DNA of 64,000 nucleotides from Acidimicrobiia bacterium (GCA_022819505.1 JAJEHD010000018.1:560587-624586); one strand, 5' to 3'; positions 1 through 27,138 are shown, counted from the stretch's first letter. Notes: a model not told the origin generated them from the letters alone. Made by a program: numbers and translations.

Positions 1-2
1 CC

Positions 3-251
3 TACTGGGGCAGCATGGCCGACGGCTTCATAGACCTGGTCGACTTCGGGCCCGCCGTGCCCGACGACCTCGCCGAGATGGTGAACGCCCGCAGAGCCGA
101 GATAGAGGCCGGCAACTTCGACGTGTTTGTCGGACCCATCGTGGATCACGAGGGCAACCTCCAGGTTCCCGATGGCGAGCCGGCGTCACTCGAGCACATC
201 TGGGGAGTCGACTACGTGCTCGACGGCATCGAGGGCACCCTGCCCAACTGA
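3..251 (+). CDS. BMP-family (PnrA/Med-like) ABC substrate-binding protein, C-terminal fragment; 5' end outside window
   Basis: Frame is open to the window edge (..YWGSMADGFIDLVDFGP..FVGPIVDHEGN..), stop at 249-251. It is followed by the matching duplicated-ATPase gene and two permease genes. Family call rests on resemblance and context. Confidence 0.6.
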   Translation, partial: YWGSMADGFIDLVDFGPAVPDDLAEMVNARRAEIEAGNFDVFVGPIVDHEGNLQVPDGEPASLEHIWGVDYVLDGIEGTLPN

Positions 252-344
252 CCGTAGAGCCCGGCTCGGAGCAGGGCGCATCCTCAACGGGACAAGCGGG
301 ACGGATTGGACACTTCAGCACCGCCGCGCTCCAATGAGCCGGTG

Positions 345-1913
345 ATGGGGGGTTCGAGCGACCGGCTGGCGGTCGAGATGACCGGAATCTCGAAGTCGTT
401 CTTCGGTCAGAGCGCTCTCACCGACGTCGACTTTGAGGTCCGGTGGGGCGAGGTCCACGCGCTGCTGGGCGAGAACGGCGCGGGCAAGTCGGCGCTGTGC
501 TCCATCCTCGCCGGCCTGTACCGGGCCGATCAGGGCTCGATCAGGATCGACGGTCATGTGGTCGACTTCCGCTCCCCCCACGACGCCCTGAACGCGCACG
601 TAGGGATGGTGTACCAGGAGTTCCGGCTGGTCAACGAGTTCACGGTCGCGGAGAACGTCGTGCTGGGCGATCCCCGGCTGTCCCGCCGGCTCAAGTGGTC
701 CGAAGTCGAGGAGTCCGTCGCCGAGGCGGCCGCCGCCTACGACATCGACACCGACCCCAGGCAGTTGGTCGGGGACCTGTCGGTGGGCGAGCGCCAGCGC
801 ATCGAGATCCTGAAGCTGCTCTATCGCGACGCGCGGGTGCTCGTCCTCGACGAGCCCACGTCGGTGCTGACCCCCAGCGAGGTGCGCGAGCTGTTCCAGT
901 CGATGGACGCACTCCGTCGCTCCGGAAGGGCCGTGATCCTGATCTCTCACAAGATCAATGAACTGCGGGCCTCGTCGGACCGGGTCACGATCATGAGGCA
1001 GGGCCGGAAGGTGGCGGTCGACAAGCTCGACGACATCACCAACGACGACCTCACCCGGCTCATGGTCGGCCGCAAGATCGCCGCGCCCCGCACGAGACAG
1101 TCGCCACCGGCGCTCGACCGGCCCGTGCTCGAGATCCGGGGCCTCAACGTCACCAACCAGGACGGCAGGGTGGCGGTCGACTCATTCGATGCAGAAGTCC
1201 ATGAGGGGGAGATACTCGGCATCGCCGGGATCGCGGGCAACGGCCAGCGAGAGTTGGTCGAGGCTCTCGCCGGCCTCAAGCCGGTGCAGTCGGGAACGGT
1301 GAGGCTCCAGCGGCCGGTTGGAGCGTCCGCTGGCGACTCCGCGGGCGCCATCGACGTCACGGGCATGTCCCCCCGGGATCTGATCGAGATCGGGATCGCG
1401 CACATACCCGAGGACCGGCGGGCCGTGGGCGTCGCGTCCGGACTGGACATCGGGGCGAACCTCTGCATGAAGAGTTACTGGAAGGAGCCCCTGAGCAGGC
1501 GCGGCGTGATGTCGAGGTCAGCTGTCCGAGCTCTGGAGGACGGGCTGAGGGCCGACTTCGACATCAGGGGCGGCAGCCGCAACCTGCCGGTGAGCATCCT
1601 TTCCGGCGGGAACATCCAGAAGGTGATCCTGGCCCGGGAGCTGAGCCAGAGTCCGGCCGTGGTGATCGCCGCCTACCCGACCCGGGGTCTCGACCTCGGA
1701 GCCGTCGCCAACGTCCGAGACATCCTCATCGGTCAGCTGGAGGCCGGCACCGCCGTGGTGCTGGTGTCGGAGGACCTTGACGAGCTGTTCATCATGTCCG
1801 ACCGGCTGATCGTCCTTCACGCCGGCCGGATCATGGGCGAGTTCGAGCCGGCCGACTATGACCGCGAGACGGTGGGCGCGCTGATGTCGGGCGGCACGGC
1901 CGCGGGGGGCTAG
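345..1913 (+). CDS. ABC transporter ATP-binding protein with duplicated ATPase domains (BMP/CUT2-type importer)
   Basis: Walker A GENGAGKS, signature LSVGERQRIEI, Walker B VLVLDEPT. Second half carries GIAGNGQ and LSGGNIQKV. The track start at 306 is TTG; I prefer the in-frame ATG at 345 (MGGSSDRLAVEMTGISKSF). Confidence 0.9.
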   Translation: MGGSSDRLAVEMTGISKSFFGQSALTDVDFEVRWGEVHALLGENGAGKSALCSILAGLYRADQGSIRIDGHVVDFRSPHDALNAHVGMVYQEFRLVNEFTVAENVVLGDPRLSRRLKWSEVEESVAEAAAAYDIDTDPRQLVGDLSVGERQRIEILKLLYRDARVLVLDEPTSVLTPSEVRELFQSMDALRRSGRAVILISHKINELRASSDRVTIMRQGRKVAVDKLDDITNDDLTRLMVGRKIAAPRTRQSPPALDRPVLEIRGLNVTNQDGRVAVDSFDAEVHEGEILGIAGIAGNGQRELVEALAGLKPVQSGTVRLQRPVGASAGDSAGAIDVTGMSPRDLIEIGIAHIPEDRRAVGVASGLDIGANLCMKSYWKEPLSRRGVMSRSAVRALEDGLRADFDIRGGSRNLPVSILSGGNIQKVILARELSQSPAVVIAAYPTRGLDLGAVANVRDILIGQLEAGTAVVLVSEDLDELFIMSDRLIVLHAGRIMGEFEPADYDRETVGALMSGGTAAGG

Positions 1914-1915
1914 CA

Positions 1916-3016
1916 GTGCGCAGGCTGGTTCTCGAGCAGCGAGCCACCCCGTCTCGCACGTTCTCGCTGGCACTGCCGGCTCTGTCCGCGTTGGGCGCGC
2001 TCATTCTCGGGAGCGTCCCTCTGATGCTGATCGGCGCCGACCCGATCGAGGTGTACCGCCTGATGCTCACCAGTGCCTTCGGTAGCACTCGTGGCATCAC
2101 CGACACCCTCACCGACGCGATGCCGATCATGCTGACCGGCCTGGCGGCGGTCGTGACGTTCCGCATGAACGTGTGGAACATCGGAGCCGAGGGTCAGCTC
2201 CAGATCGGGGCGGTGACCTCGGCCGGCGTCGCGCTCTGGCTCGGCGACGGCGCCAACACCGTGTTCGCGCTGGTTGCCATGATCGTCGCCGGAGTCCTGG
2301 GCGGGAGCCTCTACGCGGGCTTGGTGGCGCTGCCGGCGGCGACCTGGAGGGTCGACGAGGTGGTCCTGACCCTCATGATGAACTTCCTGTCGCTGGCGTT
2401 CATCAACTACCTGGTGTTCGGCAGCCACAGCCCGTGGCGGGACGCGTTCTCGATCAGCTTCCCTCGGGGCCAGCTCATTCCCGACAGCTCGCGCCTGCCC
2501 GATCTGTCGGGCCGGCTTAACCTGGGCTTCGTCATCACGCTGGCGGTGGTATTCCTCGTCGCCTGGCTGCTGAAGTACACGGTCTGGGGATACGAGTACT
2601 TGGTAGTGGCCGACTCGCGGGGGGCGGCCTCCTTCGCCGGCATCAACCAGTGGCGGATGATCGTCAGCTCGTTCCTGCTGTCGGGCGGCTGCGCCGGTCT
2701 GGGGGGCGCAGTGCTGGTCGGCGGGACGCTGGGGGCGATGGAGCCCCGGGCCCTGACCGGCCTCGGTTTCACCGGGATCCTGGTGGCGGCCCTGGGACGC
2801 ATGTCGCCTACCGGCGTGATCCCGGCCGCGATCGTGCTGTCGGCCATCGTGTCGTCGGGTCCTGACCTGCAGCAGATCGGAGTGCCCGCTCCGCTGACGG
2901 TGGTATTGCAGGGGCTCATCCTGGTGGTGATCGCCGGGGGCGAGTTCCATCTCCGGTACCGCTTGACGAGAGCCGGATCCACAGCCCAGGAGGCGCATGG
3001 GGAGAGCGCTCCGTGA
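1916..3016 (+). CDS. ABC transporter permease (BMP-type system)
   Basis: Hydrophobic multi-span protein with a GTG start 3 nt after the ATPase stop and high GC3. Antisense ORF 1910-2998 was rejected. Confidence 0.85.
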   Translation: MRRLVLEQRATPSRTFSLALPALSALGALILGSVPLMLIGADPIEVYRLMLTSAFGSTRGITDTLTDAMPIMLTGLAAVVTFRMNVWNIGAEGQLQIGAVTSAGVALWLGDGANTVFALVAMIVAGVLGGSLYAGLVALPAATWRVDEVVLTLMMNFLSLAFINYLVFGSHSPWRDAFSISFPRGQLIPDSSRLPDLSGRLNLGFVITLAVVFLVAWLLKYTVWGYEYLVVADSRGAASFAGINQWRMIVSSFLLSGGCAGLGGAVLVGGTLGAMEPRALTGLGFTGILVAALGRMSPTGVIPAAIVLSAIVSSGPDLQQIGVPAPLTVVLQGLILVVIAGGEFHLRYRLTRAGSTAQEAHGESAP

Positions 3017-3954
3017 ACGACACTGCCTTGGTGAGCATCATCGTCGCCGGGCTCCTGTTCGGCACGCCTCTGGTGTATGTGGCCATGGGCGAGCTCGTCT
3101 CGCAGCGGGCGGGAGTCATGAACCTCTCCCTGGACGGGATAATGCTGTTCAGCGCGGTGAGCGGCTACGGCGTCGCCGCCGAGACCGGGTCGCTGTGGCT
3201 GGCGCTGGCTACGTCGGTCCTGGTCGGCGCATCGATATCGGCGCTGTTCGCGTTCCTGTCGATCACCCTGCGGGTCAGCCAGATCCTCGCGGCCCTCGGG
3301 CTACTGGTGTTCACCTCCGGCATGTCGCAGTACTTGGGCCGCATCGGTGACGAGCCGCTCATCGGACGGCTGTCGGGCGTCTCGATCGAGCCGTACACCA
3401 CCGGCGCCCTCACCGACATCCCGCTGCTGGGTCCGATCCTGTTCGGGCACGACTTCGTGGTCTACGGGAGTTGGGTGCTGGTGGCGCTGACCCACTTCTA
3501 CATCAACCACACTGAGCCCGGAATGCGGGTCCGTGCCGTCGGCAACGATCCTGCCAGCGCCGAGGCTGCCGGAGTGCGAGTGGCCAGGGTCCGGGCCGTG
3601 CACGTGATCATCGGCGGGGCGCTGGCCGGCTTCGGCGGGGCGTACTACTCGCTGGGGCTCGTGCCGATCTGGCAGGAGAGGATCACATCGAATGCGGGGT
3701 GGCTCGCTATCGCGATCGTGCTGGCCGCTCGTTGGCGGCCGCTGGCGGCGTTCGCGGCCGCGTTCGTCTTCGGAGCGTCCATCAGGCTCGGGTTCACGCT
3801 TCAGGTGGTCGGCGCCAACGTCTCCCCGGAACTGTTGAGCATGATCCCGTACGTCCTGGCGATCGTGGCCGTGTTGCTCACGGCTCTGAGCCGCTCACGC
3901 GGCCTCACCGAGCCGAAGGCGCTCGGCATCCCGTTCTTCCGCGAGCAGCGCTGA
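3013..3954 (+). CDS. ABC transporter permease (BMP-type system, second subunit)
   Basis: GTGA start/stop overlap with the previous permease; multi-span hydrophobic sequence. Confidence 0.85.
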   Translation: MNDTALVSIIVAGLLFGTPLVYVAMGELVSQRAGVMNLSLDGIMLFSAVSGYGVAAETGSLWLALATSVLVGASISALFAFLSITLRVSQILAALGLLVFTSGMSQYLGRIGDEPLIGRLSGVSIEPYTTGALTDIPLLGPILFGHDFVVYGSWVLVALTHFYINHTEPGMRVRAVGNDPASAEAAGVRVARVRAVHVIIGGALAGFGGAYYSLGLVPIWQERITSNAGWLAIAIVLAARWRPLAAFAAAFVFGASIRLGFTLQVVGANVSPELLSMIPYVLAIVAVLLTALSRSRGLTEPKALGIPFFREQR

Positions 3955-3960
3955 GCACGA

Positions 3961-5376
3961 TCAATCGCCGGAGCCCCAGGACACCGAGAACCGGTCAAGG
4001 CCGACCCGGTCGTTCAGGTTGGCGACGGCCCGCTCGGCCTCCTCGATGACCTCTCGTTCATCGACGGTGACGCAGCGTGCGTCCTCGACGACTACCCGGC
4101 CGTCCACCACTACCGTCCGGACATTGGCGCCGGTGACCGAGTTGACGACGGTCGTCGCCGTCTTCTGGCTGGGAATGCAGCTCGGTCCGGTCACGTCGAC
4201 GACGGCCAGGTCGGCCAGACGGCCCTGTGCCAGCACACCCACGTCGAAGCCGGTGAACTCGGCTCCCCCCAGCATCGCTGCCTCCAGGACTGTCTCGCTG
4301 GTGATCACCGATGGATCCACGGCCAGTGCTCGGTGCACCAGAACCGTCTGCTTCATGACCTCGAAGGCGTCCTGACGGTGGCCGACAGCAGGACCATCGG
4401 TCCCTAGCCCGACCACCACGCCGGCGTCGAGCATCTCTAGCAGCGGCATGGTTCCGACCCCGAGAGACGCGTTGGACACCGCGTTGTGGGCCACGGCCGC
4501 GCCGGTATCGGCCAGCGCCGCCACCTCGTCGGGGGTCACCCATATCGCATGGGCGAGCGTCGTCTCCGGCCCCAGCAGGCCCTCCCGGTGCAGCCATGAG
4601 ATCGGCGTCGTCTCATAGGCCCTCTGGTACACGACGGGGTCGCCCTTGGACTCACAGCAGTGCGTGTGCCACTTGGTGCCGAATCGTCGAGCCAGCTCCA
4701 CGGAGCCGGCGATCATGTCCTGGTCGTTGAAGGCGATGTTCAAGGGCCCGGGCCAGAGCGCCACCAGCGGGTCGTCGGACCAGCCTGACAGCAGCTCGGC
4801 CATGATCGAGAGCTCCTCACCGGTGGTGTAGTAGTTGGGCCGGGACCCGCTGTCTCGGAACGCCATCGCCGGCGGGCTCGTGCCGGTCATCCCCCGGGCG
4901 ACCGCGCCACGGATCCCCACTGACTCCATCGCGCCGGCCACCGCCACCGTGGTCTCGGGATCGGGCGGCATGTACTGGTTGTCGACCACGCATGTGATTC
5001 CGGCCCGGACCGCCTCCAGCGCGGCCAGGCGCGTACCGGCCACGACCTCGTCGCGAGTGACCTCGTCGGCGACCGGGAACGTGAGCGTGGAGAGCCAATC
5101 CCAAGTGGTGAGACCCTCTCCAAGGCTCTTGATCAGCATCTGTGCAAGGTGGCTGTGACAATCGACGAATCCCGGTAGCACTACCGCGCCCGTGCAGTCG
5201 ATGACTCGGCGCGCCGCGGAGGCGTCCACGCGGTCCGTGCTGTCGACCGCCACGATGCGGTTGCCCGACACCGCGACCGCCCCCCGTTCGATCACCCGCC
5301 GGTCGTCGTCGAGGGTGACCACCGTCCCGCCGGACAGCACAAGGTCGTACTCGGGCGTGACTTGAGTCGCAGGCAT
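3961..5376 (-). CDS. Amidohydrolase-superfamily deaminase/chlorohydrolase-type enzyme (nucleobase / MTA / triazine deaminase family)
   Basis: PGFVDCHSHL (HxH metal site), WHTHCCES, GLGTDG. Start trimmed from track ORF 3961-5829 to the ATG at 5376 (MPATQVTPEYDLVLSGGTVV), because the upstream part overlaps the Rieske gene. Confidence 0.8.
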   Translation of the reverse strand: MPATQVTPEYDLVLSGGTVVTLDDDRRVIERGAVAVSGNRIVAVDSTDRVDASAARRVIDCTGAVVLPGFVDCHSHLAQMLIKSLGEGLTTWDWLSTLTFPVADEVTRDEVVAGTRLAALEAVRAGITCVVDNQYMPPDPETTVAVAGAMESVGIRGAVARGMTGTSPPAMAFRDSGSRPNYYTTGEELSIMAELLSGWSDDPLVALWPGPLNIAFNDQDMIAGSVELARRFGTKWHTHCCESKGDPVVYQRAYETTPISWLHREGLLGPETTLAHAIWVTPDEVAALADTGAAVAHNAVSNASLGVGTMPLLEMLDAGVVVGLGTDGPAVGHRQDAFEVMKQTVLVHRALAVDPSVITSETVLEAAMLGGAEFTGFDVGVLAQGRLADLAVVDVTGPSCIPSQKTATTVVNSVTGANVRTVVVDGRVVVEDARCVTVDEREVIEEAERAVANLNDRVGLDRFSVSWGSGD

Positions 5377-5417
5377 CGCTTGCTCCCGTCTCGTTCCCGG
5401 CGTCCCGCAGCCGTCTG

Positions 5418-6557
5418 CTAGCCGGGTTCTGGAATCGTCTCGTCGCGGCCCTGCTCCAGCTGGCTGACGATCTCTCGCAGCCACAGCCGGTACTCCAGGG
5501 AGTAGAGGTCCACGCCCCGGATGTGCAGTTCGGCCGCCAAGTCCTGGGGCACTGCGTTCGGTCGCTGCGACTCGACGACGGGCCGGTCCTGTTCGTAGAC
5601 CGTCATGTTCAGCACGGCATGGTCCTTGAACGCCGTTCCCGGCTCGCCGAAGTTCCTTGCCACCACGGTGAAGTTCCTGGTGCGATCCGGTCCGAGGGGA
5701 GTAGCGCAGAAGAACTGGCTGAAGGAGCTGTTGCCCGCACTGATGTCCAGCCGGACGGCCAACGGCATCGAGATGGTCCTCATGTTGGTCACCTCGACGA
5801 ATTCGGCGTCGGTGTCGACCTCGGACCACTTGGACAGCCGAGCCGGTTGGAGCACCGGCTCATCCTCCATCATGCACAAGGTCATTCCGTCGCGCCAGAC
5901 CTTGTACGAGTTGATCTCGGGATGGTTGATGTCGCCGAGCCACCCGTCGTGGACGAAGGCGAAGTGGCTGACGTCGGTGTAGTTCTCGATGCGTCGCGCA
6001 GCTGCGCAATTCCAGTCGACCACTGGGAACTCGACCCAGTAGTAGTCCGGGTCGCTGAACTGGGGGAAGTCGGGCATCGGGGCGAGGGACTCGTCCTCGA
6101 GGCAGACCCAGATGAGCCCGTACCTCTCCTCGGCCCTGTAGCTGCGTACAGAGATGTCGAGCTTGTCGGCGAGGTCGGGCGCCTGCGGGACCAGCCTGCA
6201 CCGACCGGTGCCGTCGTACTGCCAGCCGTGGTAGGCGCAGCGAAGCCTCGTCCCCCCGGCGGTGACCGCACCCAGCGACAACGCGGTGCCCCGATGGGCA
6301 CACAGGTCGTTGAACGCCCGCACCCGGCCGTCGAGCCTCACGATCACCAGCTGCTGGTCGCACAACTCGGCCTGAACGGGGTCGGCGTCCACGTCGGAGG
6401 ATCGGGCCACGGGGTGCCAGAAGTGCCGGAAGGTCTCGTAGATCCTGCGGTCGGTGTCCGCATCTATCACCGTCGACTCGAACTGGTTCCTGGCGAGAGT
6501 GGGCCCGCCGTCGGCCGAGATTGCTGCCTCCGATCTCGGTTGGGCTCCGCTGTTCAT
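5418..6557 (-). CDS. Rieske [2Fe-2S] non-heme iron oxygenase, alpha subunit type (paralog 1)
   Basis: Rieske motif CAHRGTALSLG...CAYHGWQYD. Mononuclear iron motif ENYTDVSHFAFVH. 4-bp overlap with the upstream ferredoxin gene. Confidence 0.9.
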   Translation of the reverse strand: MNSGAQPRSEAAISADGGPTLARNQFESTVIDADTDRRIYETFRHFWHPVARSSDVDADPVQAELCDQQLVIVRLDGRVRAFNDLCAHRGTALSLGAVTAGGTRLRCAYHGWQYDGTGRCRLVPQAPDLADKLDISVRSYRAEERYGLIWVCLEDESLAPMPDFPQFSDPDYYWVEFPVVDWNCAAARRIENYTDVSHFAFVHDGWLGDINHPEINSYKVWRDGMTLCMMEDEPVLQPARLSKWSEVDTDAEFVEVTNMRTISMPLAVRLDISAGNSSFSQFFCATPLGPDRTRNFTVVARNFGEPGTAFKDHAVLNMTVYEQDRPVVESQRPNAVPQDLAAELHIRGVDLYSLEYRLWLREIVSQLEQGRDETIPEPG

Positions 6558-6748
6558 CCGTCCGAACTCGACAGAGCATTGACTGGACAGCAGGCGACTG
6601 CATCAAGCAGGGAGCGCTCCTCATGGGTTGCCGGCGTTTCCTTGACCACGACCAGCACGCCATCGTCGTCCATGTCAAAGAGTGCTGGTGCGATCGTTGT
6701 GCACATGCCCGATCCGATGCACTTGTCGCGGTCGACACCTACCTTCAT
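6554..6748 (-). CDS. Small single-cluster ferredoxin ([3Fe-4S]/[4Fe-4S] actinobacterial type)
   Basis: 64 aa with CIGSGMC (C-x5-C) and a distal CP (AVACCPVNAL). Translationally coupled to Rieske paralog 1. Confidence 0.8.
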   Translation of the reverse strand: MKVGVDRDKCIGSGMCTTIAPALFDMDDDGVLVVVKETPATHEERSLLDAVACCPVNALSSSDG

Positions 6749-6815
6749 CTGGCTTCCTCCGCTGGCTTGCTTCCTTCAGGTGCTCGTCCCGGGCTCCACG
6801 GGCGGCTCTCATTCT

Positions 6816-7943
6816 CTAGCAGGCGTCTGCCGGGACAAGCTCGTCGGCTAGTTCGAGCAGCCACTTGCGGTACTGGAGTGAGAACGTGTCCACGTTGGCC
6901 AGGTACATCTCCATCGAGAGGTCCTCGGGCAGCTGCTCGGGCCGCTGCGAGGAGACGATGGGCTCGTCCTGGTCGTAGACGATCTTGTTCCAGCCCGCGA
7001 TCTCTTCGAAGATCGTCGACGCCGACCCGAAGTTACGAGCGCCGATTGTGAAGTTGCGGATAGTGGTGGCCGAGGTCGGGGTGGGGTGGAAGAACAGGCA
7101 GTAGTCGTTGCCCTCGGTGTCGAACACCCGCAGCAGCACCGTCAGCGGCATGAAGCAATCCCAGGTCTTCATGACCTCGAGGAACTCACGGTCGGTCACG
7201 ATCGACTTGTTCTTGCCCGCGCTGGCGGGCTCGAAGCACGGTTCGGCCAGCCGCATCTGCAGCACGTTGTGGGCGGTCTGGGACACCTCGTACTGGGGGA
7301 TGGCCGGATTGCGGGAGTCTCCCAGGTAGCCGTCGTGGACGAAGGCCAGATGGGCCGGGTCGGTGTAGTTCTCGGTGCGGCGCACCGCGAAGGTGTGCTC
7401 CCAGTCGGTGGAGGGAACCGCCACCCAGTCATAGGAGGGATCCTCGAACTGGGGGAACTCCGGCAGCGGGAAATGGGGCTCGTCGGCCAGACAGACCCAG
7501 ACCATGCCGTAGCGCTCCACGGTGTTGTAGCGCTTGACGCGGGCTCTCAGCCTGCCGGCGAGGTCGGGACGCTGCGGAGCCAGCACGCAGCGCCCGTCGC
7601 GGGCATAGCGCCAGCCGTGATAGGGGCACTGCAGGGTCTCGCCCTCCTCTGATGCCACCACCTTGCCGAGCGACAGGGCGGTGCCGCGGTGCGCGCACAT
7701 GTCGTTGAGGACGTTGACCTCGCCGTCGAGACGCACCGCCACCAACTGCTCACCGCACAGCCACACCCGCTTGGGGGTGTCGTCGAGTTCCTGGGAGTAG
7801 ATGACCGGATGCCAGAAGTGCCGCAGCGCCCGGTAGATGCGGGTCTCGGCCTCGGCGTCCATCCGGTTGACCCGCATGTCGGCCAGGCTCTGGTTCTTGG
7901 CCAGCGCCCAGTCGGTGTCTGCTGCTGCTTGAGCTGAGTTCAT
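6816..7943 (-). CDS. Rieske [2Fe-2S] non-heme iron oxygenase, alpha subunit type (paralog 2)
   Basis: CAHRGTALSLG...CPYHGWRY; ENYTDPAHLAFVH. Clearly alignable by eye to paralogs 1 and 3. Confidence 0.9.
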   Translation of the reverse strand: MNSAQAAADTDWALAKNQSLADMRVNRMDAEAETRIYRALRHFWHPVIYSQELDDTPKRVWLCGEQLVAVRLDGEVNVLNDMCAHRGTALSLGKVVASEEGETLQCPYHGWRYARDGRCVLAPQRPDLAGRLRARVKRYNTVERYGMVWVCLADEPHFPLPEFPQFEDPSYDWVAVPSTDWEHTFAVRRTENYTDPAHLAFVHDGYLGDSRNPAIPQYEVSQTAHNVLQMRLAEPCFEPASAGKNKSIVTDREFLEVMKTWDCFMPLTVLLRVFDTEGNDYCLFFHPTPTSATTIRNFTIGARNFGSASTIFEEIAGWNKIVYDQDEPIVSSQRPEQLPEDLSMEMYLANVDTFSLQYRKWLLELADELVPADAC

Positions 7944-7983
7944 GTCATGTGGCGACCGACGCGGTCATTCTCGTCCCCGATTC

Positions 7984-8175
7984 CTAGCCTCGGACCCGGA
8001 TCGCACCGACCGGGCATCCCCGCTCGGCCGACTTCACCGCCTGGCGGGATTCCTCGGGCGGCTCCTGAAGCAGCAGGGAGGCCTTCCCGTCCTCGTCGAG
8101 GTGGAACACCTCGGGAGCGAAGCCGGTGCACATCCCGGTGCTAGCACATCTCTGGACGTCGATCTCTATCCGCAT
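7984..8175 (-). CDS. Small single-cluster ferredoxin (second copy)
   Basis: MRIEIDVQRCASTGMCTGFAPEVF...GCPVGAIRV. Trimmed from track ORF 7984-8271 to the ATG at 8175. Confidence 0.75.
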   Translation of the reverse strand: MRIEIDVQRCASTGMCTGFAPEVFHLDEDGKASLLLQEPPEESRQAVKSAERGCPVGAIRVRG

Positions 8176-8190
8176 GGGGCCTTGGCTGAG

Positions 8191-8205
8191 CTTACATGTA
8201 CCATG
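8191..8205. promoter_or_regulatory. Candidate operator CTTACATGTACCATG in the divergent ferredoxin/Rieske promoter region
   Basis: AT-rich 15-mer containing the palindrome TACATGTA. It matches 13 of 15 positions with CTTGCATGTATCATG at 12379-12393, upstream of the amidohydrolase_2/GntR operon. Confidence 0.4.
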
Positions 8206-8270
8206 CTTTACTGGCAATGGGCTCGCGTCCAAGGCCGACCGGCGTGGGCCGATCCGAAGGGAGATCTGCA

Positions 8271-9353
8271 ATGACGGTGGTCGACGATCGCACCGCCGCC
8301 GCGGTTCCCAATGAGTGGACCGCTGAGGGGGAGGGACGGCTGTACCGGTCGCTGGGCTGGTACTGGCATCCGGTGATGTACGCGTCCCAACTCGGCGACG
8401 CGCCGGTTCAGACCACGCTGCTGGGTCGCCGTGTGGTGGTCGTCCGTCTCACCGGCGAGGTTCGGGCCTTCGTCGACCGCTGCGCCCACCGCGGCACCGC
8501 GGTGTCGCTGGGATGGGTCGAGGGCGACTGCCTCCGCTGTCCTTACCATGGCTGGCTCTATGACGATCAGGGCGTGTGCGTCGAGATCCCGTCGCGCACC
8601 GACGCCGTCATCTCGCCTCGGGCCCGCCTGGAGCGCCTCCACGCCCGGGAGGCCAACGGTCTGATCTACGTCTGCGCGGCCCCGGAACCGAGAATCGACA
8701 TCCCCGTGTTTCCCGAGTGGTCCGACGACGCCTTCTGCAAGGTGGCCATACCGGCCTACGACTGGCAGGCCGGCGCAGCCCGGCGCACCGAGAACTTCGT
8801 GGACTTCTCCCATTTCGCCTGGGTCCACGACGGGGTCCTGGCCCGGCGTGACCAGCCGCTCGTGCCCGATCACGAGGTTCGCCGCGAAGGGTGGGAGCTG
8901 CGGACCCGGATCGTGGTCGACGAGCCCACCAACACATCCAAGACGTCGACGCTCGAACTCGAGTCGGCGAGCACGACGGTCCCCGGTGAGCGCAACTACC
9001 GGATTGCGCTTCCGTTCACCGTCTGGATCCACCAGACGCTTCCCGCGGGCCAGGCCTTCGTGCTGTTCATGGCTTGCCAGCCCGTCGGTCCGAAGGAGTG
9101 CCGCACCTTCACCTTCGTTGCCCGCAACTTCGGGCTCGAGGAGCCCGACGAGTCCTTCATCGCGCATCAGCAGGAGATCGTGGAAGCCGACCGGGTCATA
9201 GCCGAGTCGCAGCTGCCGGAGGAGCTGCCGACGGACCTGAGCGAGGAGATGTACGTGAGGGGTGCGGACCAGATCTCGGTCGAGTACCGGCGGTGGCTCC
9301 TCGAATTGGTCGTGGAGTCTGAGGAGGTCGGCGGCGATGCCTCGAATCGTTGA
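8271..9353 (+). CDS. Rieske [2Fe-2S] non-heme iron oxygenase, alpha subunit type (paralog 3)
   Basis: CAHRGTAVSLG...CPYHGWLYD; ENFVDFSHFAWVH. Start set to the ATG at 8271, preceded by GAAGGGAG. Confidence 0.9.
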   Translation: MTVVDDRTAAAVPNEWTAEGEGRLYRSLGWYWHPVMYASQLGDAPVQTTLLGRRVVVVRLTGEVRAFVDRCAHRGTAVSLGWVEGDCLRCPYHGWLYDDQGVCVEIPSRTDAVISPRARLERLHAREANGLIYVCAAPEPRIDIPVFPEWSDDAFCKVAIPAYDWQAGAARRTENFVDFSHFAWVHDGVLARRDQPLVPDHEVRREGWELRTRIVVDEPTNTSKTSTLELESASTTVPGERNYRIALPFTVWIHQTLPAGQAFVLFMACQPVGPKECRTFTFVARNFGLEEPDESFIAHQQEIVEADRVIAESQLPEELPTDLSEEMYVRGADQISVEYRRWLLELVVESEEVGGDASNR

Positions 9354-10608
9354 CCAAGCCAGCTTCGGTCCCACGCCGCTCACGCCGCGGATGGGCCCGC
9401 TGAATCACGGCAACAAGTGGCACAGCTGGCGCGGGCTGCACATTCCCGACACCTACGAGGGGCTGAGCCCGGAACTGAGGGCACTCCACAGTCGGGCGGT
9501 CATCGAGGACAAGTCCCCGATGAACTACTACTCGATAATGGGCGAGGATGCGCTCCGGTTCCTCGACCATCTGGTCACCCGCGATGTGAGCAGGATCCCG
9601 ATCGGGGCAGGCATCTACACGGTCTGGCTGAACGAATCGGGCAAGGTCGTCATCGACACGCCCGTATTCCGGGTGGGCGAGTCTCACTACGTCACCATGG
9701 GCGGAATCCTCAGCAACTGGCTGGCTGAGCACGCGGGTTCCTACGACGTCGAGATCCGCGACGAGTCGGAAGTGAAGATGGTGATGCCGCTTCAGGGCCC
9801 CCTGTCCGGCGGGATCCTCGAGGCGGTGACGGGAGAGGACTGGTCCGGCGTCGACTTCATGCGAGGGCGCCCCACCACCATCGGCTCAGCCGAAGTCTGG
9901 GTGTGGAGAGCCGGTTACAGCTCGCAGCTGGGCTACGAACTGCACATCGATCGAAGCGACGCCGTCGAGGTCTTCGACGCCGTGATGCTCGCTGGCGAGC
10001 CCTTCGGGCTGATGCCGATCGGCCAGAACGCCGTGCAGGTGGCCCGCACCGAGGCCGGCCTCATCGTGCCCGGAATCGACTACACCCGGGCAGGATCGGA
10101 CCTGAACATCGCCTCATACGCGTTGCTGGACGAGGGCGGGGTGGTCTCGCCGTTCGAGATCGGCCTCGGCCGGTTCGTGAACTTCGACAAGCCCTCCGAC
10201 TTCATCGGCAGGAAGGCGCTGCTCGACGAGCAGGCAAGAGGGGGGCCCGCCCGAAGACTGGTCGGGCTCGATGTGGCTTGGCAGGACATCGTGTCGCTGT
10301 ACGGCGAGGCTGGTGAGGCTCCTGAGGTCACTCGACGCGTCGACTACCGCCGCCACCGGGTCCTGCGCGACGGCGATGTCGTTGGGAAGGCGACCAGCCT
10401 GTGTTGGAGCCCTACGATCCGCCGCGAGATTGCCCTGGGCCAAGTCGACCGAGGCTGCTCCGGCATCGGGACATCACTCACCATGGAGTGGAGGGAGCAC
10501 GGATGCGCCCTGACACCCGAACTGCTTGAAGATGTGGTGAGCGGGACCGTTCAAGCGACCGTGGTGCCCCTCCCGTTCGTGTCCAAGGCCAGGAAGTTCA
10601 CCGCCTGA
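9337..10608 (+). CDS. GcvT-family aminomethyltransferase / folate-binding protein
   Basis: GcvT-like layout (..YYSIMGEDALRFLDHLVTRDV.., ..EIGLGRFVNFDKPSDFIGRKALLDE..). The ATG at 9337 overlaps the end of Rieske paralog 3 by 17 nt. Confidence 0.8.
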   Translation: MPRIVDQASFGPTPLTPRMGPLNHGNKWHSWRGLHIPDTYEGLSPELRALHSRAVIEDKSPMNYYSIMGEDALRFLDHLVTRDVSRIPIGAGIYTVWLNESGKVVIDTPVFRVGESHYVTMGGILSNWLAEHAGSYDVEIRDESEVKMVMPLQGPLSGGILEAVTGEDWSGVDFMRGRPTTIGSAEVWVWRAGYSSQLGYELHIDRSDAVEVFDAVMLAGEPFGLMPIGQNAVQVARTEAGLIVPGIDYTRAGSDLNIASYALLDEGGVVSPFEIGLGRFVNFDKPSDFIGRKALLDEQARGGPARRLVGLDVAWQDIVSLYGEAGEAPEVTRRVDYRRHRVLRDGDVVGKATSLCWSPTIRREIALGQVDRGCSGIGTSLTMEWREHGCALTPELLEDVVSGTVQATVVPLPFVSKARKFTA

Positions 10609-10612
10609 TCGG

Positions 10613-10648
10613 CCGGCCGGCGGGCGGCTTCGGCCCGCTGGTGCCGGT
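10613..10648. terminator. GC-rich imperfect hairpin between convergent genes (candidate bidirectional terminator)
   Basis: CCGGCCGGCGGGC..GCCCGCTGGTGCCGG stem with an internal bulge; no U tract. Confidence 0.35.
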
Positions 10649-10652
10649 CCCG

Positions 10653-11324
10653 TCAGGACGCGTCGGCGCGGTCGTGGTCTTCCAACTCGGCCAGCACCCG
10701 CTGGCGCAGGCAGGCTATGTGAGTGCGGGCCGCCGTCTCGGCCCGGTCGGTGTCGCCGTCGACGATGGCGTCGCACATGGCGGCGTGCTCGCGCTGCGTG
10801 GCCCGGAAGTTCCTCTCGCGGCGCCACAGTGTGTTCAGGGACAGATGAGCCCGACCCTGGGATCGGGCCAGCGTGGCATCCAGGTCCTTGTTGTGTGACA
10901 TGGCGCGGATGGTGGCGTGGAAGCGCATGTCAATGTCGGTGAACACCCACCGGTCCGCATCCGAGGACTTGAGAGACTCGAACTCCTTTTGAATCCGTCG
11001 CAGGTCCGTGCGCTGTGCGTCGGTGCCGCGCTCGGCGGCCAGCTTGGCCGCCAGCGCTTCCAGCACTTCGCGAACCTCCAGCAGGCGCAGGAAGTCGCTC
11101 ATGTCGATGTCCACAACCACCGTGCCGCGGCGTCCCCGGTAGTCGGCCAAGCCGTCCCAGATCAGGCGTTGCACGGCCTCGCGCACCGGGCTGCGAGAGA
11201 TGCCGAAGTGCCGCGCCAACTCCGGCACAGAGAGCGAAGTCCCTGGGGGCAGTTCGCTCCGGAGGATGGCAGTGCTCAACTGGGAGTAGGCGCGGTCCGC
11301 GAGAAGGTCGCCGGCCTCGATCAC
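10653..11324 (-). CDS. GntR-family transcriptional regulator (FadR/FCD-type C-terminal domain)
   Basis: Winged-HTH region SVPELARHFGISRSPVREAVQRL followed by a helical effector domain. GTG start. Confidence 0.85.
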   Translation of the reverse strand: MIEAGDLLADRAYSQLSTAILRSELPPGTSLSVPELARHFGISRSPVREAVQRLIWDGLADYRGRRGTVVVDIDMSDFLRLLEVREVLEALAAKLAAERGTDAQRTDLRRIQKEFESLKSSDADRWVFTDIDMRFHATIRAMSHNKDLDATLARSQGRAHLSLNTLWRRERNFRATQREHAAMCDAIVDGDTDRAETAARTHIACLRQRVLAELEDHDRADAS

Positions 11325-11382
11325 TTGGAGTGAGCCGTGCGGCAGGACGAGGTCTCCTTCTTCCTTGGTGGTGGGGCTTTCC

Positions 11383-12303
11383 CTAGGTGGTGGGGGTGCC
11401 GTAGCTGTTGTCGGCGAGTTGTTGTTTGGCGTCTGCGACGGTGGCGGGCGGTGCGGTGGGGGTGATACCGACGAGTCGGGCGATGTTGTTGCCCATGTAG
11501 TCCTCTAGTTGGTCCTCGGTGGCGTTGATGCCCTGGGGGGCGTCATGGCACAGCACCTCGAGATGGGTCAGCCACATGCCGGGGTCATTGGGCGGCGAGT
11601 CGGTGCCGAACACCAGCCGGTCGCGGGGCATCTCCTTGGCGAACTCCACGATGCGCGACTGCAACAGCCACCCCGACTCGCCGTAGACGTTGGGGGAGTC
11701 CATGATCATCCAGAAAGCCTCGAAGCAGTACACCCCGCCGGTCTGGACCCCGAAGTGCCCGATGATGAACTTCACGTCGGGGAACTCCCGGATGATGGGG
11801 TAGAACTGCGTCGGGATCGAATAGGGCCCGTCGCCGGTGTGGATCAACACCACCACGCCCAACTCGTCGCACTTGCGCATCACCGGGCGCAGCCAGTCCA
11901 ACGCCCGGTCGGGACGGTAGGCGTGCATGTTGGCATGCAGCTTCAACATCTTGAACCCGTACTCCTTGACATGGAACTCCAACTCGGCGGCCCCGTTGTC
12001 GGGCCCGAACCGCGGGTTGTAGTTGAAGTTCCCGATGAACCGATCGGGATAGCGCTGGGTCAACTCGGCCACATAGGCCATGTAGTCACGGATGCCCTCG
12101 CGGCCACCACGAGAACCGTCGCGCCACGCGGTGTTGCCCGGCGGGGGCTGGATGAACCCCATGTCGATGCGGCGCGGCTTGCCGTTGATCCAATACGGCC
12201 CATCCATCATCGCCAACATCCGCTCACCGGTGAACGGCTCACCGGTATGACGCCAAGCCTCATCGACGACGTTGGTCGGATGCAGATGGGTATCGATAAT
12301 CAT
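11383..12303 (-). CDS. Amidohydrolase_2 (ACMSD/LigW/isoorotate-decarboxylase-like) metal-dependent hydrolase or decarboxylase
   Basis: MIIDTHLHP N-terminal metal motif and a TIM-barrel amidohydrolase-like pattern (..LIHTGD.., ..GHFG.., ..FGTDSP..). Co-directional with the GntR gene. Confidence 0.7.
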   Translation of the reverse strand: MIIDTHLHPTNVVDEAWRHTGEPFTGERMLAMMDGPYWINGKPRRIDMGFIQPPPGNTAWRDGSRGGREGIRDYMAYVAELTQRYPDRFIGNFNYNPRFGPDNGAAELEFHVKEYGFKMLKLHANMHAYRPDRALDWLRPVMRKCDELGVVVLIHTGDGPYSIPTQFYPIIREFPDVKFIIGHFGVQTGGVYCFEAFWMIMDSPNVYGESGWLLQSRIVEFAKEMPRDRLVFGTDSPPNDPGMWLTHLEVLCHDAPQGINATEDQLEDYMGNNIARLVGITPTAPPATVADAKQQLADNSYGTPTT

Positions 12304-12378
12304 TGGGGCCTCTCCGTATATGCCGATAGCTGGGCTTTGCGGGTCCGGGCGAGCCCCGGTCCGCCGGGGTGCCCGAGT

Positions 12379-12393
12379 CTTGCATGTATCATG
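12379..12393. promoter_or_regulatory. Candidate operator CTTGCATGTATCATG upstream of the amidohydrolase_2/GntR operon
   Basis: 76-90 bp upstream of the ATG at 12303. Overlaps the ppx stop codon. 13/15 identical to the site at 8191-8205. Confidence 0.35.
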
Positions 12394-14020
12394 TCAGCGT
12401 ACCATTCGCCTGCTGGCCCACGGTCTTCGGGCTGCTGGAGGGATGGCGGTGGCGGGTGGCGCCCGTCCCGACGACGTGGAACTCGAGCTTCCGGCCGAGG
12501 GTCTTGGCCAACAGGTCGGCGCTGCGCTGGGCGGTGAAGAGCTCGATGTCCGCGTCGCTGCCTTCGGCGACCTCGACCTCGATCCGCACCACCTCGTCTT
12601 CGACGTGCGCGTGCACTCGTTCGACGGCTCGCCGGTAGGTGCGGTCCAGGGCGATCCCGATCCGGAGCAGTCCGGCCAGCACCCGCACCCGGAACCGGTC
12701 CCGCTTGGCCAGCGCGGTGAACTCGCGGTGGGAGGACACCGGCTCGCGCTTGCGGTGGTAACGGGCCACCAGGGCGATGAGCTCCAGGTCTCCCTCGGTG
12801 AAGCCGGCCAGGCGCTCGCTGTGGCGGATCAGGTAGTAGGAGTGCTTGTGGTGCGATGAGTGGGCCACGAAGCGCCCGATGTTGTGGAGCAGCCCGGCCG
12901 CCTCCAGCACCTCGCTGTCGGCGATGCCCAGGCCGTGTGCCGCCGCGGTCTCGTCGAACAGCTCGAGCGCGAGGTCGGTGGCGTGCTCGGCATGGATCAG
13001 GTCCTCGTGGTAGCTGCGGGCCAGGGCCAGCACACTGGACCTTCTCAGGTCGCTGAGATGGTGGAGGCCGTCGTCGCGGGAACGGTCCCGGCGGTTGAAC
13101 CGGTCCAGCAGCAGGCCCTCGCGCAGCGCTCCGGTCGACACCACCATCGACTCGATCTCCAACGCCTTGAACAGCTGCCTACACAGCACGGCGCCCCCGA
13201 CGATGACATCGCTGCGGGCCGGGTCCAGGCCGGGCACCTGCAAGCGGTCTGCGGGCCGAGGTCGGGAGATCAGATCGTTCACCACGCCGGTCAGGTCGGA
13301 ACGCTCGATGACCGCGTTGGCCGGGGTGCGAAGGGTCTCGCCCCGTCTCGCCGCGCACATATGCGCCAGAGCGGCGATGGTGCCCGAGCAGCCCACCGCA
13401 ACCTCGAATCCTATGGTCTTGGCCTCCTGGGCCACCGGCGCGATGAAGGACCGGATGTGGCGGCGGCAAGCCTTCACCGCGCCGTCGTCTATCACGCCGG
13501 CCGGGAAGAACCGGTCGGTGAGGCGGATATGGCCCAGCTTGAGGCTGCGGGCCAGCGCCGGTGCGGTGCCGTTGCCCACGATGACCTCCGTGGAGCCGCC
13601 GCCGATGTCGATCACCACATGGGACCGGCCCGCGATGGGCACCGCGCTCATCGCTCCCAGGTGGATCAGCCGGGCCTCCTCCATGCCCGAAATCACCTGC
13701 ACGGTCACATGGGCCTCGCTGTTGGCCCGGCGCAGGAAGTCGCTCTGGTTGTCGGCCTCCCTAACCGCGCTGGTCGCCACTGCCACGATCTCGGCGTCGT
13801 GGGCGTCGGCGATGTGGCGGCACTCGACGAGCGCGGAGATGGCCCGGTCGATGGCGTCGGGCAGCAGGCACCTCATGTCGGCCCCGCCACTGCCCAGCCG
13901 CACCGGCATCCGTTCCCGCACCACCACGTCGGGAGATCCGCCCGGAACGGGCCGAGCGATCACCATGTGAATCGAGTTGGTGCCCACATCGATGGCAGCC
14001 AACGCCCGCGAGCCCGTCAT
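12389..14020 (-). CDS. ppx: Ppx/GppA-family exopolyphosphatase / guanosine pentaphosphate phosphohydrolase with C-terminal HD domain
   Basis: AAIDVGTNSIHMVIA and DIGGGSTE ASKHA motifs; HD-domain region HNIGRFVAHSSHHKHSYYLI. Confidence 0.9.
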   Translation of the reverse strand: MTGSRALAAIDVGTNSIHMVIARPVPGGSPDVVVRERMPVRLGSGGADMRCLLPDAIDRAISALVECRHIADAHDAEIVAVATSAVREADNQSDFLRRANSEAHVTVQVISGMEEARLIHLGAMSAVPIAGRSHVVIDIGGGSTEVIVGNGTAPALARSLKLGHIRLTDRFFPAGVIDDGAVKACRRHIRSFIAPVAQEAKTIGFEVAVGCSGTIAALAHMCAARRGETLRTPANAVIERSDLTGVVNDLISRPRPADRLQVPGLDPARSDVIVGGAVLCRQLFKALEIESMVVSTGALREGLLLDRFNRRDRSRDDGLHHLSDLRRSSVLALARSYHEDLIHAEHATDLALELFDETAAAHGLGIADSEVLEAAGLLHNIGRFVAHSSHHKHSYYLIRHSERLAGFTEGDLELIALVARYHRKREPVSSHREFTALAKRDRFRVRVLAGLLRIGIALDRTYRRAVERVHAHVEDEVVRIEVEVAEGSDADIELFTAQRSADLLAKTLGRKLEFHVVGTGATRHRHPSSSPKTVGQQANGTLT

Positions 14021-14118
14021 CGGCGGGCAAGCATCATGCCAAACGGACCGTCTCGCAACCCGGGGCCCGGCATATCTTCACGGCGCCCGCGGCTACGGTG
14101 GCCGCGGTGAGCGGGGAG

Positions 14119-14847: not shown

Positions 14848-14935
14848 GCCCTGGATCGGGTCCGCCGCACCAGAATTGGCAGCGTTAAGTGCGCATAGCG
14901 TGCAGGATGCGGCCAACTCGGCCGTGGGGGGAGTC

Positions 14936-16434: not shown

Positions 16435-16436
16435 GC

Positions 16437-26860: not shown

Positions 26861-26862
26861 AC

Positions 26863-27138
26863 GTGCGCGTCTACGAGGTGTTCGTCAAGAAGGACGGACG
26901 CAACGAGTTCCGTCATGTCGGCGCGCTGGAGGCCGCCACCGACGAACTGGCGCTCGTGCTGGCCCGGGAGGCCTACCTGCGCCGGGCCGAGGGTGACAGG
27001 CTCTGGGTGGTGCGCCGAGACCATGTGGTCGCGGCCGCTGGTGACTTTGTGGACCCCAACGCCGACAAGCCGCACCGCCACCACGACGGCGCGGCGGTGG
27101 CTGCCCGTCGCATGGCCGCGCGTCAGTCGCCCGGTTGA
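26863..27138 (+). CDS. paaB: 1,2-phenylacetyl-CoA epoxidase, subunit B
   Basis: GTG start 3 nt after the paaA stop. VRVYEVFVKKDGRNEFRHVGALEA... matches the PaaB pattern. It is hidden inside a longer out-of-frame track ORF (26257-27138). Confidence 0.85.
   Translation: MRVYEVFVKKDGRNEFRHVGALEAATDELALVLAREAYLRRAEGDRLWVVRRDHVVAAAGDFVDPNADKPHRHHDGAAVAARRMAARQSPG

Follow-up and report, generated by a model that had tools for sequence, protein, structure and literature searches.

A GntR-associated cluster of Rieske oxygenases, a GcvT-like protein and an amidohydrolase in an uncultured Acidimicrobiia bacterium: a candidate pathway for N-methylated purine-type heterocycles

Introduction

To our knowledge, Rieske-type N-demethylation of purines in bacteria is known essentially from one system, the caffeine Ndm enzymes of Pseudomonas. 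Other described oxygenase systems that share features with the locus treated here are HpxDE, the molybdenum-independent hypoxanthine/xanthine hydroxylase of Klebsiella and Pantoea, and the saxitoxin C-H hydroxylases SxtT and GxtA. DmmD is a stand-alone GcvT-type partner of an N-demethylating oxygenase and is thought to conjugate the released formaldehyde to tetrahydrofolate (THF; PMC5520151), and AtzT, a guanine binder recruited for hydroxyatrazine, binds, like the protein of structure 3s99, guanine/adenine bases and not nucleosides (PMC6834077). Here, we describe a gene cluster in a 64-kb stretch of DNA from an Acidimicrobiia bacterium (GCA_022819505.1 JAJEHD010000018.1:560587-624586; the whole analysed stretch is called the window), in which genes for Rieske oxygenases, small ferredoxins, a GcvT-like protein, an amidohydrolase, a GntR regulator and an ATP-binding cassette (ABC) importer lie together. 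In the literature, which was also searched for Ndm homologs in Actinobacteria and sponges and for methylguanine demethylases, no described cluster combining Rieske, GcvT, amidohydrolase and BMP genes was found.

With a probability of roughly 0.55, the cluster would encode a catabolic module under GntR control that acts on an imported planar nitrogen heterocycle with several N-methyl groups, most probably a methylated (amino)purine base or a compound closely resembling one. The substrate would be taken up by an AtzT-type BMP binding protein and the ABC transporter, and the four Rieske paralogs (Rk1-Rk4) would each hydroxylate one N-methyl group, with the hydroxylated methyl leaving as formaldehyde. 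Electrons would reach the Rieske enzymes through small ferredoxins of the Fer4 type, supplied by a ferredoxin reductase of the glutathione-reductase type whose gene would lie elsewhere in the genome, the GcvT-like protein would pass the one-carbon unit to THF, and the amidohydrolase Amh1 would remove an exocyclic amino or alkylamino group to yield an ordinary purine-type intermediate. The gene content, the family placement, the retention of the module as a unit, the shared operator motif and the intact catalytic residues are observed directly, whereas we infer the substrate class and the order of these steps, and also the reaction type, demethylation, the latter from the kinship with NdmA/NdmB and the co-located formaldehyde and one-carbon enzymes.

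The gene cluster and its conservation

All gene coordinates were confirmed by open reading frame listing and Pfam scans, all Pfam family assignments held (E-values of 1e-10 to 1e-49), and the same gene boundaries were obtained from independent calls on six public contigs with identical proteins. The minus-strand operon order, small gaps and 4- and 17-nucleotide overlaps described in an earlier note on this DNA were thereby confirmed. The features are as follows.

1..251, plus strand: Bmp, BMP-family substrate-binding lipoprotein, 3' end (remainder upstream of the window; mapped from contigs L001/L007/L008)
345..1913, plus strand: ABC transporter ATPase with two ABC_tran domains (62% identity to the L100 importer ATPase)
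2024..3016, plus strand: ABC permease 1 (BPD_transp_2)
3013..3954, plus strand: ABC permease 2 (BPD_transp_2)
3961..5376, minus strand: Amh1, Amidohydro_1 protein of the deaminase/chlorohydrolase type (TRZ/ATZ, 8-oxoguanine-deaminase group; Pfam 9.9e-49)
5418..6557, minus strand: Rk1 (Rieske-1), alpha-only Rieske non-heme-iron oxygenase, Rieske + VanA_C (NdmA match 7.5e-52)
6554..6748, minus strand: Fd1 (ferredoxin-1), 64-aa single-cluster protein, Fer4_13/Fer4_15, CxxSxxC...CP (Pfam; 4-nt overlap with Rk1)
6816..7943, minus strand: Rk2 (Rieske-2), Rieske/VanA_C paralog (Pfam; 67-bp gap to Fd1)
7984..8175, minus strand: Fd2 (ferredoxin-2), 63-aa single-cluster protein, CxxTxxC...CP (Pfam)
8192..8201, no strand assigned: candidate GntR operator, TTACATGTA(C), in the 95-bp divergent promoter region between Fd2 and Rk3
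8271..9353, plus strand: Rk3 (Rieske-3), most divergent Rieske paralog (NdmB match 3.1e-46; 17-nt overlap with the GcvT-like gene)
9337..10608, plus strand: GcvT-like THF-binding protein, stand-alone, GCV_T + GCV_T_C (Pfam)
10653..11324, minus strand: GntR/FCD transcription regulator (Pfam)
11383..12303, minus strand: Amh2, Amidohydro_2, ACMSD/LigW/IDCase fold (Pfam 8.2e-44; membership in the system doubtful)

The window begins inside the cluster, and the rest of the Bmp gene together with a fourth Rieske paralog, Rk4 (371 aa), lies just upstream (L007 7387-8502; L-numbers denote other loci or contigs used for comparison, e.g., L007, L015 and L099). Thus, the three Rieske paralogs reported earlier are all present in the window, but the set comprises four.

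The main support for treating these genes together comes from the unrelated contig L099, where an operon in one direction holds GntR, Rk3 (76% identity), DUF3237, GcvT (73%), Rk4 (67%), Rk2 (81%), a ferredoxin (71%, to Fd1), Rk1 (73%), Amh1 (69%), a ferredoxin reductase and AP_endonuc_2, followed by a BMP-type permease. These orthologs correspond 1:1 with the window set at 66-81% identity, the GntR ortholog included (66%). Because all orthologs occur together in this operon, L099 shows the four Rieske paralogs, GcvT, ferredoxin, deaminase and regulator to form one predicted functional unit, and the survey of neighbourhoods proposed in the earlier note accordingly recovered a conserved Rieske/GcvT/ferredoxin/amidohydrolase/GntR set. 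The L099 contig has a GC content of 61.5%, and one member of the L099 GcvT cluster is labelled Gemmatimonadota. Just 5' of the L099 GntR gene (2862-2922), a sub-threshold tRNA-like element was also detected (Rfam 21.8 bits against a gathering threshold of 29; ARAGORN negative), which may be an integration-site remnant.

A more distant version was found in L015, a locus of an alphaproteobacterial metagenome-assembled genome (MAG). Its Rieske genes share 57-62% identity with Rk2 and Rk4 and are accompanied by GntR, a ferredoxin and a reductase, as well as by two genes each for Bmp and cog0402 amidohydrolases. L015 has no GcvT gene; in its place, a glutathione-independent formaldehyde dehydrogenase (TIGR02819, 698 bits against a cut-off of 637) is located between the reductase and a Rieske gene, and the same dehydrogenase stands next to a Rieske family member in L071. 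Primase- and phage-integrase-type genes follow the L015 cluster (14419-17169), which suggests that it resides on a mobile island.

Closer to the window, L013 is without Rk3 and Fd2, and L010 is without Rk1, Rk3, Fd2 and the transporter; Fd2 is found in the window's own population and is missing from the compared loci L010, L013 and L099. The GcvT-like proteins of L010 (5659-11272), L013 (873-12538) and the window (3961-10608) are 92-94% identical, yet the loci carry 2, 3 or 4 Rieske paralogs and 1-2 ferredoxins, a sign that modules have been lost or gained rapidly in a single lineage.

Rieske oxygenases

Rk1-Rk4 all keep the CxH...CxxH and E-N-x2-D-x2-H-x4-H motifs and the downstream Asp. The Rieske-cluster ligands C-H-C-H are present in the four paralogs and in every ortholog (Pfam Rieske E-values of 2e-22 to 7e-20), and the iron ligands H, H and D align with those of NdmA (VanA_C E-values of 8e-20 to 3e-17). 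The intact Rieske and iron-site motifs reported earlier are therefore retained, with the spacing corrected from N-x3-D to N-x2-D. Likewise, no gene for a beta (small) subunit was found in the window, L007 or L099, in agreement with the previous description. The arrangement of a tandemly duplicated ferredoxin-Rieske module also stands, but the duplication is ancient, since the paralogs share a mutual identity of only 40-49%, and each has its own ortholog elsewhere.

The nearest solved relatives of these proteins are the methylxanthine N-demethylases NdmA and NdmB. In a comparison of a four-paralog profile with all PDB sequences, NdmA (6.7e-69) and NdmB (1.2e-66) were matched over their full length, followed by GxtA and SxtT (both about 1e-54), and carbazole dioxygenase, DdmC, KshA, Stc2-like proteins, CntA and all other Rieske families scored 1e-23 or worse. 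In a neighbour-joining tree of 48 family members (300 bootstrap replicates), the window clade was sister to the Ndm clade (bootstrap 71), with HpxD and SxtT outside; the Rk1/2/4 core was supported at 99 and the Ndm clade at 100. The latter, which includes Cupriavidus and Paracoccus orthologs, is monophyletic and excludes Rk1-Rk4, and the identity between Rk and Ndm proteins is 32-36%. Profile E-values and tree together thus place the paralogs beside NdmA/NdmB and not in the KshA, DdmC, CntA or ring-dihydroxylating groups, the placement on which the earlier note had made its reading depend; the support for Ndm as the nearest relative of Rk1-Rk4 is moderate, not strong.

The residues of NdmA that contact caffeine are F168, F174, F223, L248, N282, V285 and F286 (bioRxiv 10.1101/2021.12.17.472166). 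For the NdmA/NdmB pair, positions 282 and 286 read N282/Q289 and F286/L293. At NdmA positions 168/174/223/248/282/285/286, the compared proteins have the following residues.

Rk1: Y F N Q N V Y
Rk2: Y L K L N V Y
Rk4: Y F Q L C V Y
Rk3: F F R L Q I V (NdmB-like at 282 and 286)
HpxD: F F R I N V F
SxtT: Ser at 168 and Asp at 248 (NdmA signature not kept)

Positions 168 (Y/F), 174 (F; L in Rk2), 248 (L; Q in Rk1) and 285 (V/I) are conserved in Rk1-Rk4, and position 223, located in a loop that is poorly alignable, is polar in Rk1, Rk2, Rk4 and Rk3 (N, K, Q and R, respectively). The pocket residues are the same in the window and L099 orthologs of Rk1, Rk2 and Rk3 (two of the seven differ in Rk4) and vary from paralog to paralog, which fits position-specific enzymes.

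Among further family members, BMP binding-protein genes are located directly 5' of the oxygenase genes in Cohnella, Paenibacillus and another Acidimicrobiales MAG. The closest relatives of Rk3 outside the clade (L016 and L017, 8800-17700) are encoded in operons under LysR control, along with a different ABC importer and a protein of 644-655 aa, suggesting that the Rk3 branch was recruited to other imported substrates.

Electron transfer and one-carbon handling

Fd1 and Fd2 are single-cluster Fer4_13/Fer4_15 proteins with a CxxS/TxxC...CP pattern and are not of the 2Fe-2S type. The reductase encoded in the orthologous loci L015 and L099 belongs to the Pyr_redox_2/Reductase_C type, and the L099 operon reductase identifies the reductase type missing from the window.

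With Tm Asp96, Tyr188, Glu195 and RxE as reference residues, the folate and catalytic residues Asp107, Tyr200, Glu201 and R237-x-E239 were found to be present in the GcvT-like protein and invariant or nearly so in its family. Its model (predicted local distance difference test score 86.7) superposes on the T-protein 1yx2 with a template modelling (TM) score of 0.91. This result upholds the folate-binding character that the earlier note had assumed. The protein nevertheless differs from a canonical T-protein: it is longer than T-protein by about 60 residues, it has Val in place of Tm Arg227, a change shared with Tdm and DMGDH, and its scores fall under the curated GcvT cut-offs (148.9 bits against 300 for NF001567; 124 against 236 for TIGR00528). 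Furthermore, neither gcvH nor gcvP was found in the loci compared. Close orthologs (L099; 68% and 71% in L100) are confined to a narrow set of metagenomic lineages, after which identity drops to about 40%. The earlier suggestion that GcvT captures the one-carbon unit on folate is supported by these residues and by the DmmD precedent, but the formaldehyde trap is now one of two live readings in view of the MtmB/corrinoid genes of L100.

Importer and amidohydrolases

The full-length Bmp protein has AtzT (6pi5; 3e-73) and 3s99, both purine-base binders, as its best PDB matches. Compared with AtzT, it keeps the aromatic sandwich and the Ser/Phe contacts (Y45W, W194W, S97S, F98F and T139T), but residues that hydrogen-bond guanine in AtzT are replaced (E165D, N169D, N218G and N220S). 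These substitutions by Gly, Ser, Asp and Asp imply a roomier, more acidic site, and the ligand is probably not plain guanine.

Amh1 has a complete metal and catalytic set (HxH, HxxE, H and D, read as CHSH, HTHCCE, AHAIW and GTDG). In the PDB, it matches AtzA (6.3e-53) and then AtzB/8-oxoguanine deaminase (about 1e-45) most closely, and it is also close to the methylthioadenosine/S-adenosylhomocysteine deaminase. The protein is of the cog0402 type and reaches no named specificity, with a best equivalog score of 266 bits against a cut-off of 609. Nucleobase enzymes also occur in L097 (1-13215), a locus of another Acidimicrobiaceae MAG, which holds a BMP-type ABC transporter, two GcvT paralogs, an Amh1-like gene (44%), a Rieske/VanA_C gene, an NdmC-like VanA_C-only gene, an NdmD-like Rieske + Fer2 gene of 587 aa, an adenine deaminase and an adenosine deaminase. 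Accordingly, of the substrates named earlier (nucleobases, quaternary amines and methoxy-aromatics), nucleobases are strengthened by the Rieske pockets, the AtzT-like Bmp and L097, and methoxy-aromatics have become less likely.

In contrast to its inclusion in the earlier note, Amh2 is probably not part of the module, because the gene is missing from L099, L015, L097 and L100. In fold searches, the Amh2 model matched the ACMSD/LigW/LigJ/IDCase group (TM about 0.6, 15-20% identity). The protein is unusually conserved, being 66-80% identical from Acidimicrobiia to Sinorhizobium, Pseudomonas, Streptomyces and Nocardia, and on pSymB of S. meliloti (L103 6035-9467) two tandem Amh2 copies lie beside a UbiD-family decarboxylase, a purine permease and a xanthine-dehydrogenase-family gene.

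Regulation

The regulator has GntR and FCD domains; its ortholog heads the L099 operon, a 48% homolog is found in L015, and it is likely the repressor of the cluster. The divergent units share the candidate operator in the Fd2/Rk3 region. The pattern TKRCATGTA, a motif first found by eye so that the window statistics are post hoc, occurs twice in 64 kb against 0.33 expected, with sites at 8192 and 12380. The weak operator-like site near Amh2 (12380-12388) is doubtful given its position between the ppx stop codon and a hairpin, and we do not regard it as a solid operator. In the upstream DNA (L007), a perfect TTACATGTAA is located 5' of Rk4 and a tandem copy 5' of Bmp. Moreover, L099 has a single exact occurrence of the motif, located in the interval that separates GntR from the first Rieske gene and forming a perfect palindrome of 16 bp, ACGTTACATGTAACGT; this site is an independent confirmation of the candidate motif. 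The palindrome TTACATGTAA thus marks cluster promoters in both the window organism and L099 as a candidate, putative GntR operator.

Weighing of the alternatives

Several observations weigh against a demethylating module for methylated purines. No curated equivalog cut-off of NCBIfam is reached by any cluster protein, the bootstrap for the Ndm sister relationship is only 71 and that for the whole window clade only 61, and the adjacency of GcvT and Rieske genes is rare outside this clade. The close relatives L010 and L013 lack Rk3 and/or Rk1, and no ferredoxin reductase was found in the 64 kb by tblastn with the L015 and L099 reductases or by a regex scan for FNR/Fer2 motifs, which extends to the whole window the absence noted earlier for the cluster. 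HpxD, a xanthine ring hydroxylase, is 28-33% identical to Rk1-Rk4 and has the same pocket signature, so the pocket argues for a purine and not for demethylation. L097 and L100 have several GcvT paralogs per cluster, a hint of substrate-specific roles, and L100 combines the orthologous importer and GcvT with MtmB/corrinoid genes and has no Rieske gene. The corrinoid methyltransferase route makes no formaldehyde, and therefore the GcvT-like protein may be a direct THF-dependent methyl or one-carbon transferase. Characterised non-pyrrolysine MtmB homologs act on quaternary amines (tetramethylammonium or choline; PMC13044021), and therefore a cationic substrate stays in play.

The GcvT-like protein might accordingly be no formaldehyde trap and instead transfer methyl or one-carbon groups to THF, as a DmdA/LigM-type demethylase or methyl-corrinoid acceptor, either as a further demethylase or as a step common to aerobic and anaerobic versions, an option that is possible but less likely. 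L100 (1671-19885) contains six full-length non-pyrrolysine MtmB-family genes, two B12-binding/corrinoid proteins, a deaminase of the cytidine-deaminase fold, three GcvT-like genes (the two orthologs and a third paralog at 44%) and orthologs of the importer (Bmp 59%, ATPase 62% and permeases 57-60%); in L102, MtmB adjoins a 45% GcvT-like homolog. Together with the two GcvT paralogs of L097 and a fold search that did not separate the roles (T-protein, DMGDH, LigM and DmdA all at TM 0.72-0.78 on the query), these loci favour a transferase. However, the NCBIfam ranking puts the C-domain of trimethylamine N-oxide demethylase (172 bits) and GcvT (149) ahead of DmdA (106), DesA (96) and LigM (85), Asp107 is the nearly invariant catalytic Asp of T-protein/DMGO, and the homologs at 40% identity adjoin pairs of amine-oxidase flavoproteins. 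The formaldehyde dehydrogenase in the GcvT-less L015 cluster and the DmmD precedent also speak for a trap.

Some or all of the Rieske paralogs could also be ring or C-H hydroxylases of the HpxD or SxtT/GxtA kind, with the cluster oxidising and deaminating an un- or partly methylated purine-like ring. Besides its pocket, HpxD (recovered from a Pantoea plasmid in a plasmid search) matches by tblastn at 179 bits, about the NdmA score; SxtT and GxtA lie in the same superfamily branch; and in L020 a family member stands between two short-chain dehydrogenase/reductase genes with three amidohydrolases and no one-carbon enzyme. This is unlikely, however, as the tree puts HpxD and SxtT outside the Rk+Ndm group, with HpxD its immediate sister in just 15 of 300 replicates, and the homologous clusters themselves include one-carbon genes, namely GcvT (window, L099 and L097) or formaldehyde dehydrogenase (L015 and L071). 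Moreover, the conservation of four paralogs whose pockets differ is easier to reconcile with several methyl positions than with one or two ring carbons.

For N-methyl betaines from marine invertebrates, whether quaternary or aromatic (such as homarine, trigonelline or a choline-/betaine-like cation), a role as substrate in place of a purine is similarly improbable. The Bmp replacements relative to AtzT (Y45W, E165D, N169D, N218G and N220S), with two Trp and two acidic residues in the pocket, would suit a cation, L100 shares the importer and holds relatives of the quaternary-amine enzymes, and NicX-like and agmatinase-family genes lie upstream of Rk4. On the other hand, GbcA, CntA and Stc2-type Rieske enzymes are very distant (E-values of 1e-7 to 1e-10), the cog0402 nucleobase-type deaminase is a conserved core member, L097 has adenine and adenosine deaminases, and the upstream NicX/agmatinase block has no operator and is not in L099 or L015. 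Methylated purinium ions such as herbipoline would satisfy both sets of clues and reconcile them.

Finally, the degradation of N-alkylated s-triazines (an atrazine- or melamine-type xenobiotic pathway) is very unlikely even though AtzT, AtzA and AtzB are the best solved relatives of Bmp and Amh1, since AtzT is itself a recruited guanine binder (PMC6834077), the degree of identity is modest, the DNA comes from an uncultured Acidimicrobiia lineage of the sponge type, and ethyl/isopropyl N-dealkylation gives no one-carbon unit, which would leave GcvT or formaldehyde dehydrogenase without purpose.

As to where methylated purines might be met, the GTDB species representative SB0675_bin_25 (Acidimicrobiaceae MAG lineage) is 97% identical to the source, the SB06xx bins are sponge-associated (PMC7883664), and MAGs of Candidatus Spongiisociaceae and Aldehydirespirator are the origin of several related loci. 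Guanines, isoguanines and adenines bearing multiple N-methyl groups have been documented in sponges (PMC5793054), and sponge methylated purines are, as a speculation, attractive candidate substrates. More broadly, and rather doubtfully, the cluster could be a horizontally shared catabolic island with which sponge or other marine symbionts feed on poly-N-methylated aminopurines of their hosts (e.g., 1,3,7-trimethylguanine, dimethyl-/trimethyl-isoguanine and herbipoline). In that case, the four Rieske enzymes would each take off methyl groups at their own positions, the folate enzyme would salvage the methyl carbon and the deaminase would complete the conversion. In addition, an O2-independent sister pathway may exist in L100, with the importer and the GcvT-like enzyme cooperating there with MtmB-family/corrinoid methyltransferases. 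If the sponge substrate is true, the cluster would account for the use of a well-known group of host alkaloids by symbionts, provide position-specific demethylases useful for making methylated purines, and reveal natural ancestors for AtzT, AtzA and AtzB. L100 may be the oxygen-independent counterpart of the pathway, which would be an undescribed use of, and a new role for, non-pyrrolysine MtmB homologs and GcvT-fold proteins.

Genomic surroundings

Beyond Rk4, L007 (595-7329) carries genes for an HsaA-like flavin oxygenase, a class-III aminotransferase, a NicX-like protein, an agmatinase-family hydrolase that clears the NF002564 and TIGR01230 cut-offs, a PatB-like protein of the pyridoxal phosphate enzyme/aminotransferase type and an F420-type LLM oxidoreductase. 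Because this block has no operator and is missing from L099 and L015, it may serve another pathway, of the guanidino or pyridine type.

An Rfam scan of window positions 1-14500 and the upstream 10 kb revealed no credible purine, THF or guanidine riboswitch, the window holds no tRNA genes, and a scan of the cluster for sigma-70 promoters and terminators yielded nothing informative. Elsewhere in the window, a phenylacetate-CoA oxygenase region (23836-28827) encodes a PaaZ-like Aldedh+MaoC fusion, PaaA, PaaB, PaaC and PaaX, and a motif scan found no FNR/Fer2-type PaaE motif anywhere in the window. In addition, the gene at 17920-19866 encodes an S41 peptidase of 648 aa that carries PDZ domains and weakly matches the SLH domain, which is unusual in an actinobacterial lineage.

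Comparison with known systems

In its gene content, the cluster would define a sister clade of Ndm that differs in its electron-transfer chain and includes a folate outlet for one-carbon units, a purine-type importer and a deaminase, and this set has been kept together in uncultured marine bacteria that are only distantly related. The Rieske copy number of 2, 3 or 4 among near-identical genomes, together with the MtmB/corrinoid counterpart, also makes it a tractable case of modular pathway evolution.

SxtT and GxtA resemble Rk1-Rk4 in belonging to the same superfamily branch of alpha3-type Rieske/VanA_C proteins at about 30% identity, but they are biosynthetic hydroxylases of another clade, in which the aromatic stacking residue is Ser and Leu248 is Asp. 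The Atz pathway of Pseudomonas sp. ADP shares the AtzT/3s99-type Bmp (3e-73) and the kinship of Amh1, which is closest to AtzA (6e-53) and then to AtzB/8-oxoguanine deaminase. However, no other atz genes occur in the cluster, two guanine-contacting Asn are replaced in Bmp, and Atz enzymes remove alkylamines hydrolytically, without Rieske oxygenases or folate enzymes.

DmmDABC has a stand-alone GcvT-fold THF-binding protein in an operon with an N-demethylating oxygenase (PMC5520151), like the window, and the C-terminal THF domain of the trimethylamine N-oxide demethylase gives the best NCBIfam score of the window GcvT-like protein; by contrast, the DmmABC oxygenase is not of the Rieske/VanA_C family, and its substrates are simple methylamines. 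HpxDE likewise relies on an alpha-only Rieske/VanA_C protein with 28-33% identity to the paralogs and the pocket F F. I N V F, but HpxD pairs with a PDR/VanB-type reductase, hydroxylates a ring carbon according to its annotation and lies outside Rk+Ndm in the tree, and the hpx locus is without GcvT, formaldehyde dehydrogenase, ferredoxin or amidohydrolase.

The NdmABCDE system of Pseudomonas putida CBB5 shares with the window several alpha-only Rieske/VanA_C paralogs of about 350-380 aa, each presumably position-specific, that are similar over their full length (33-36% identity, E-values down to 1e-69) and sister to one another in the tree, with aromatic purine-contact residues that appear to be shared, including an N/Q switch at 282, and with formaldehyde-handling genes nearby in related loci. 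The window clade is nevertheless separate from the Ndm clade, and the Rk proteins have a polar residue at position 223 and Tyr at 286, except for Rk3, which has Val there. The electron supply differs as well, with 63-65-aa Fer4_13/15 ferredoxins and a Pyr_redox_2/Reductase_C reductase in window-type loci against the fused Rieske-flavin-Fer2 protein NdmD. NdmC and NdmE are absent from the window, and NdmC-/NdmD-like genes occur only in the more distant L097, whereas the window system has four full Rieske paralogs, GcvT-like one-carbon handling, and an integral cog0402 deaminase and ABC importer.

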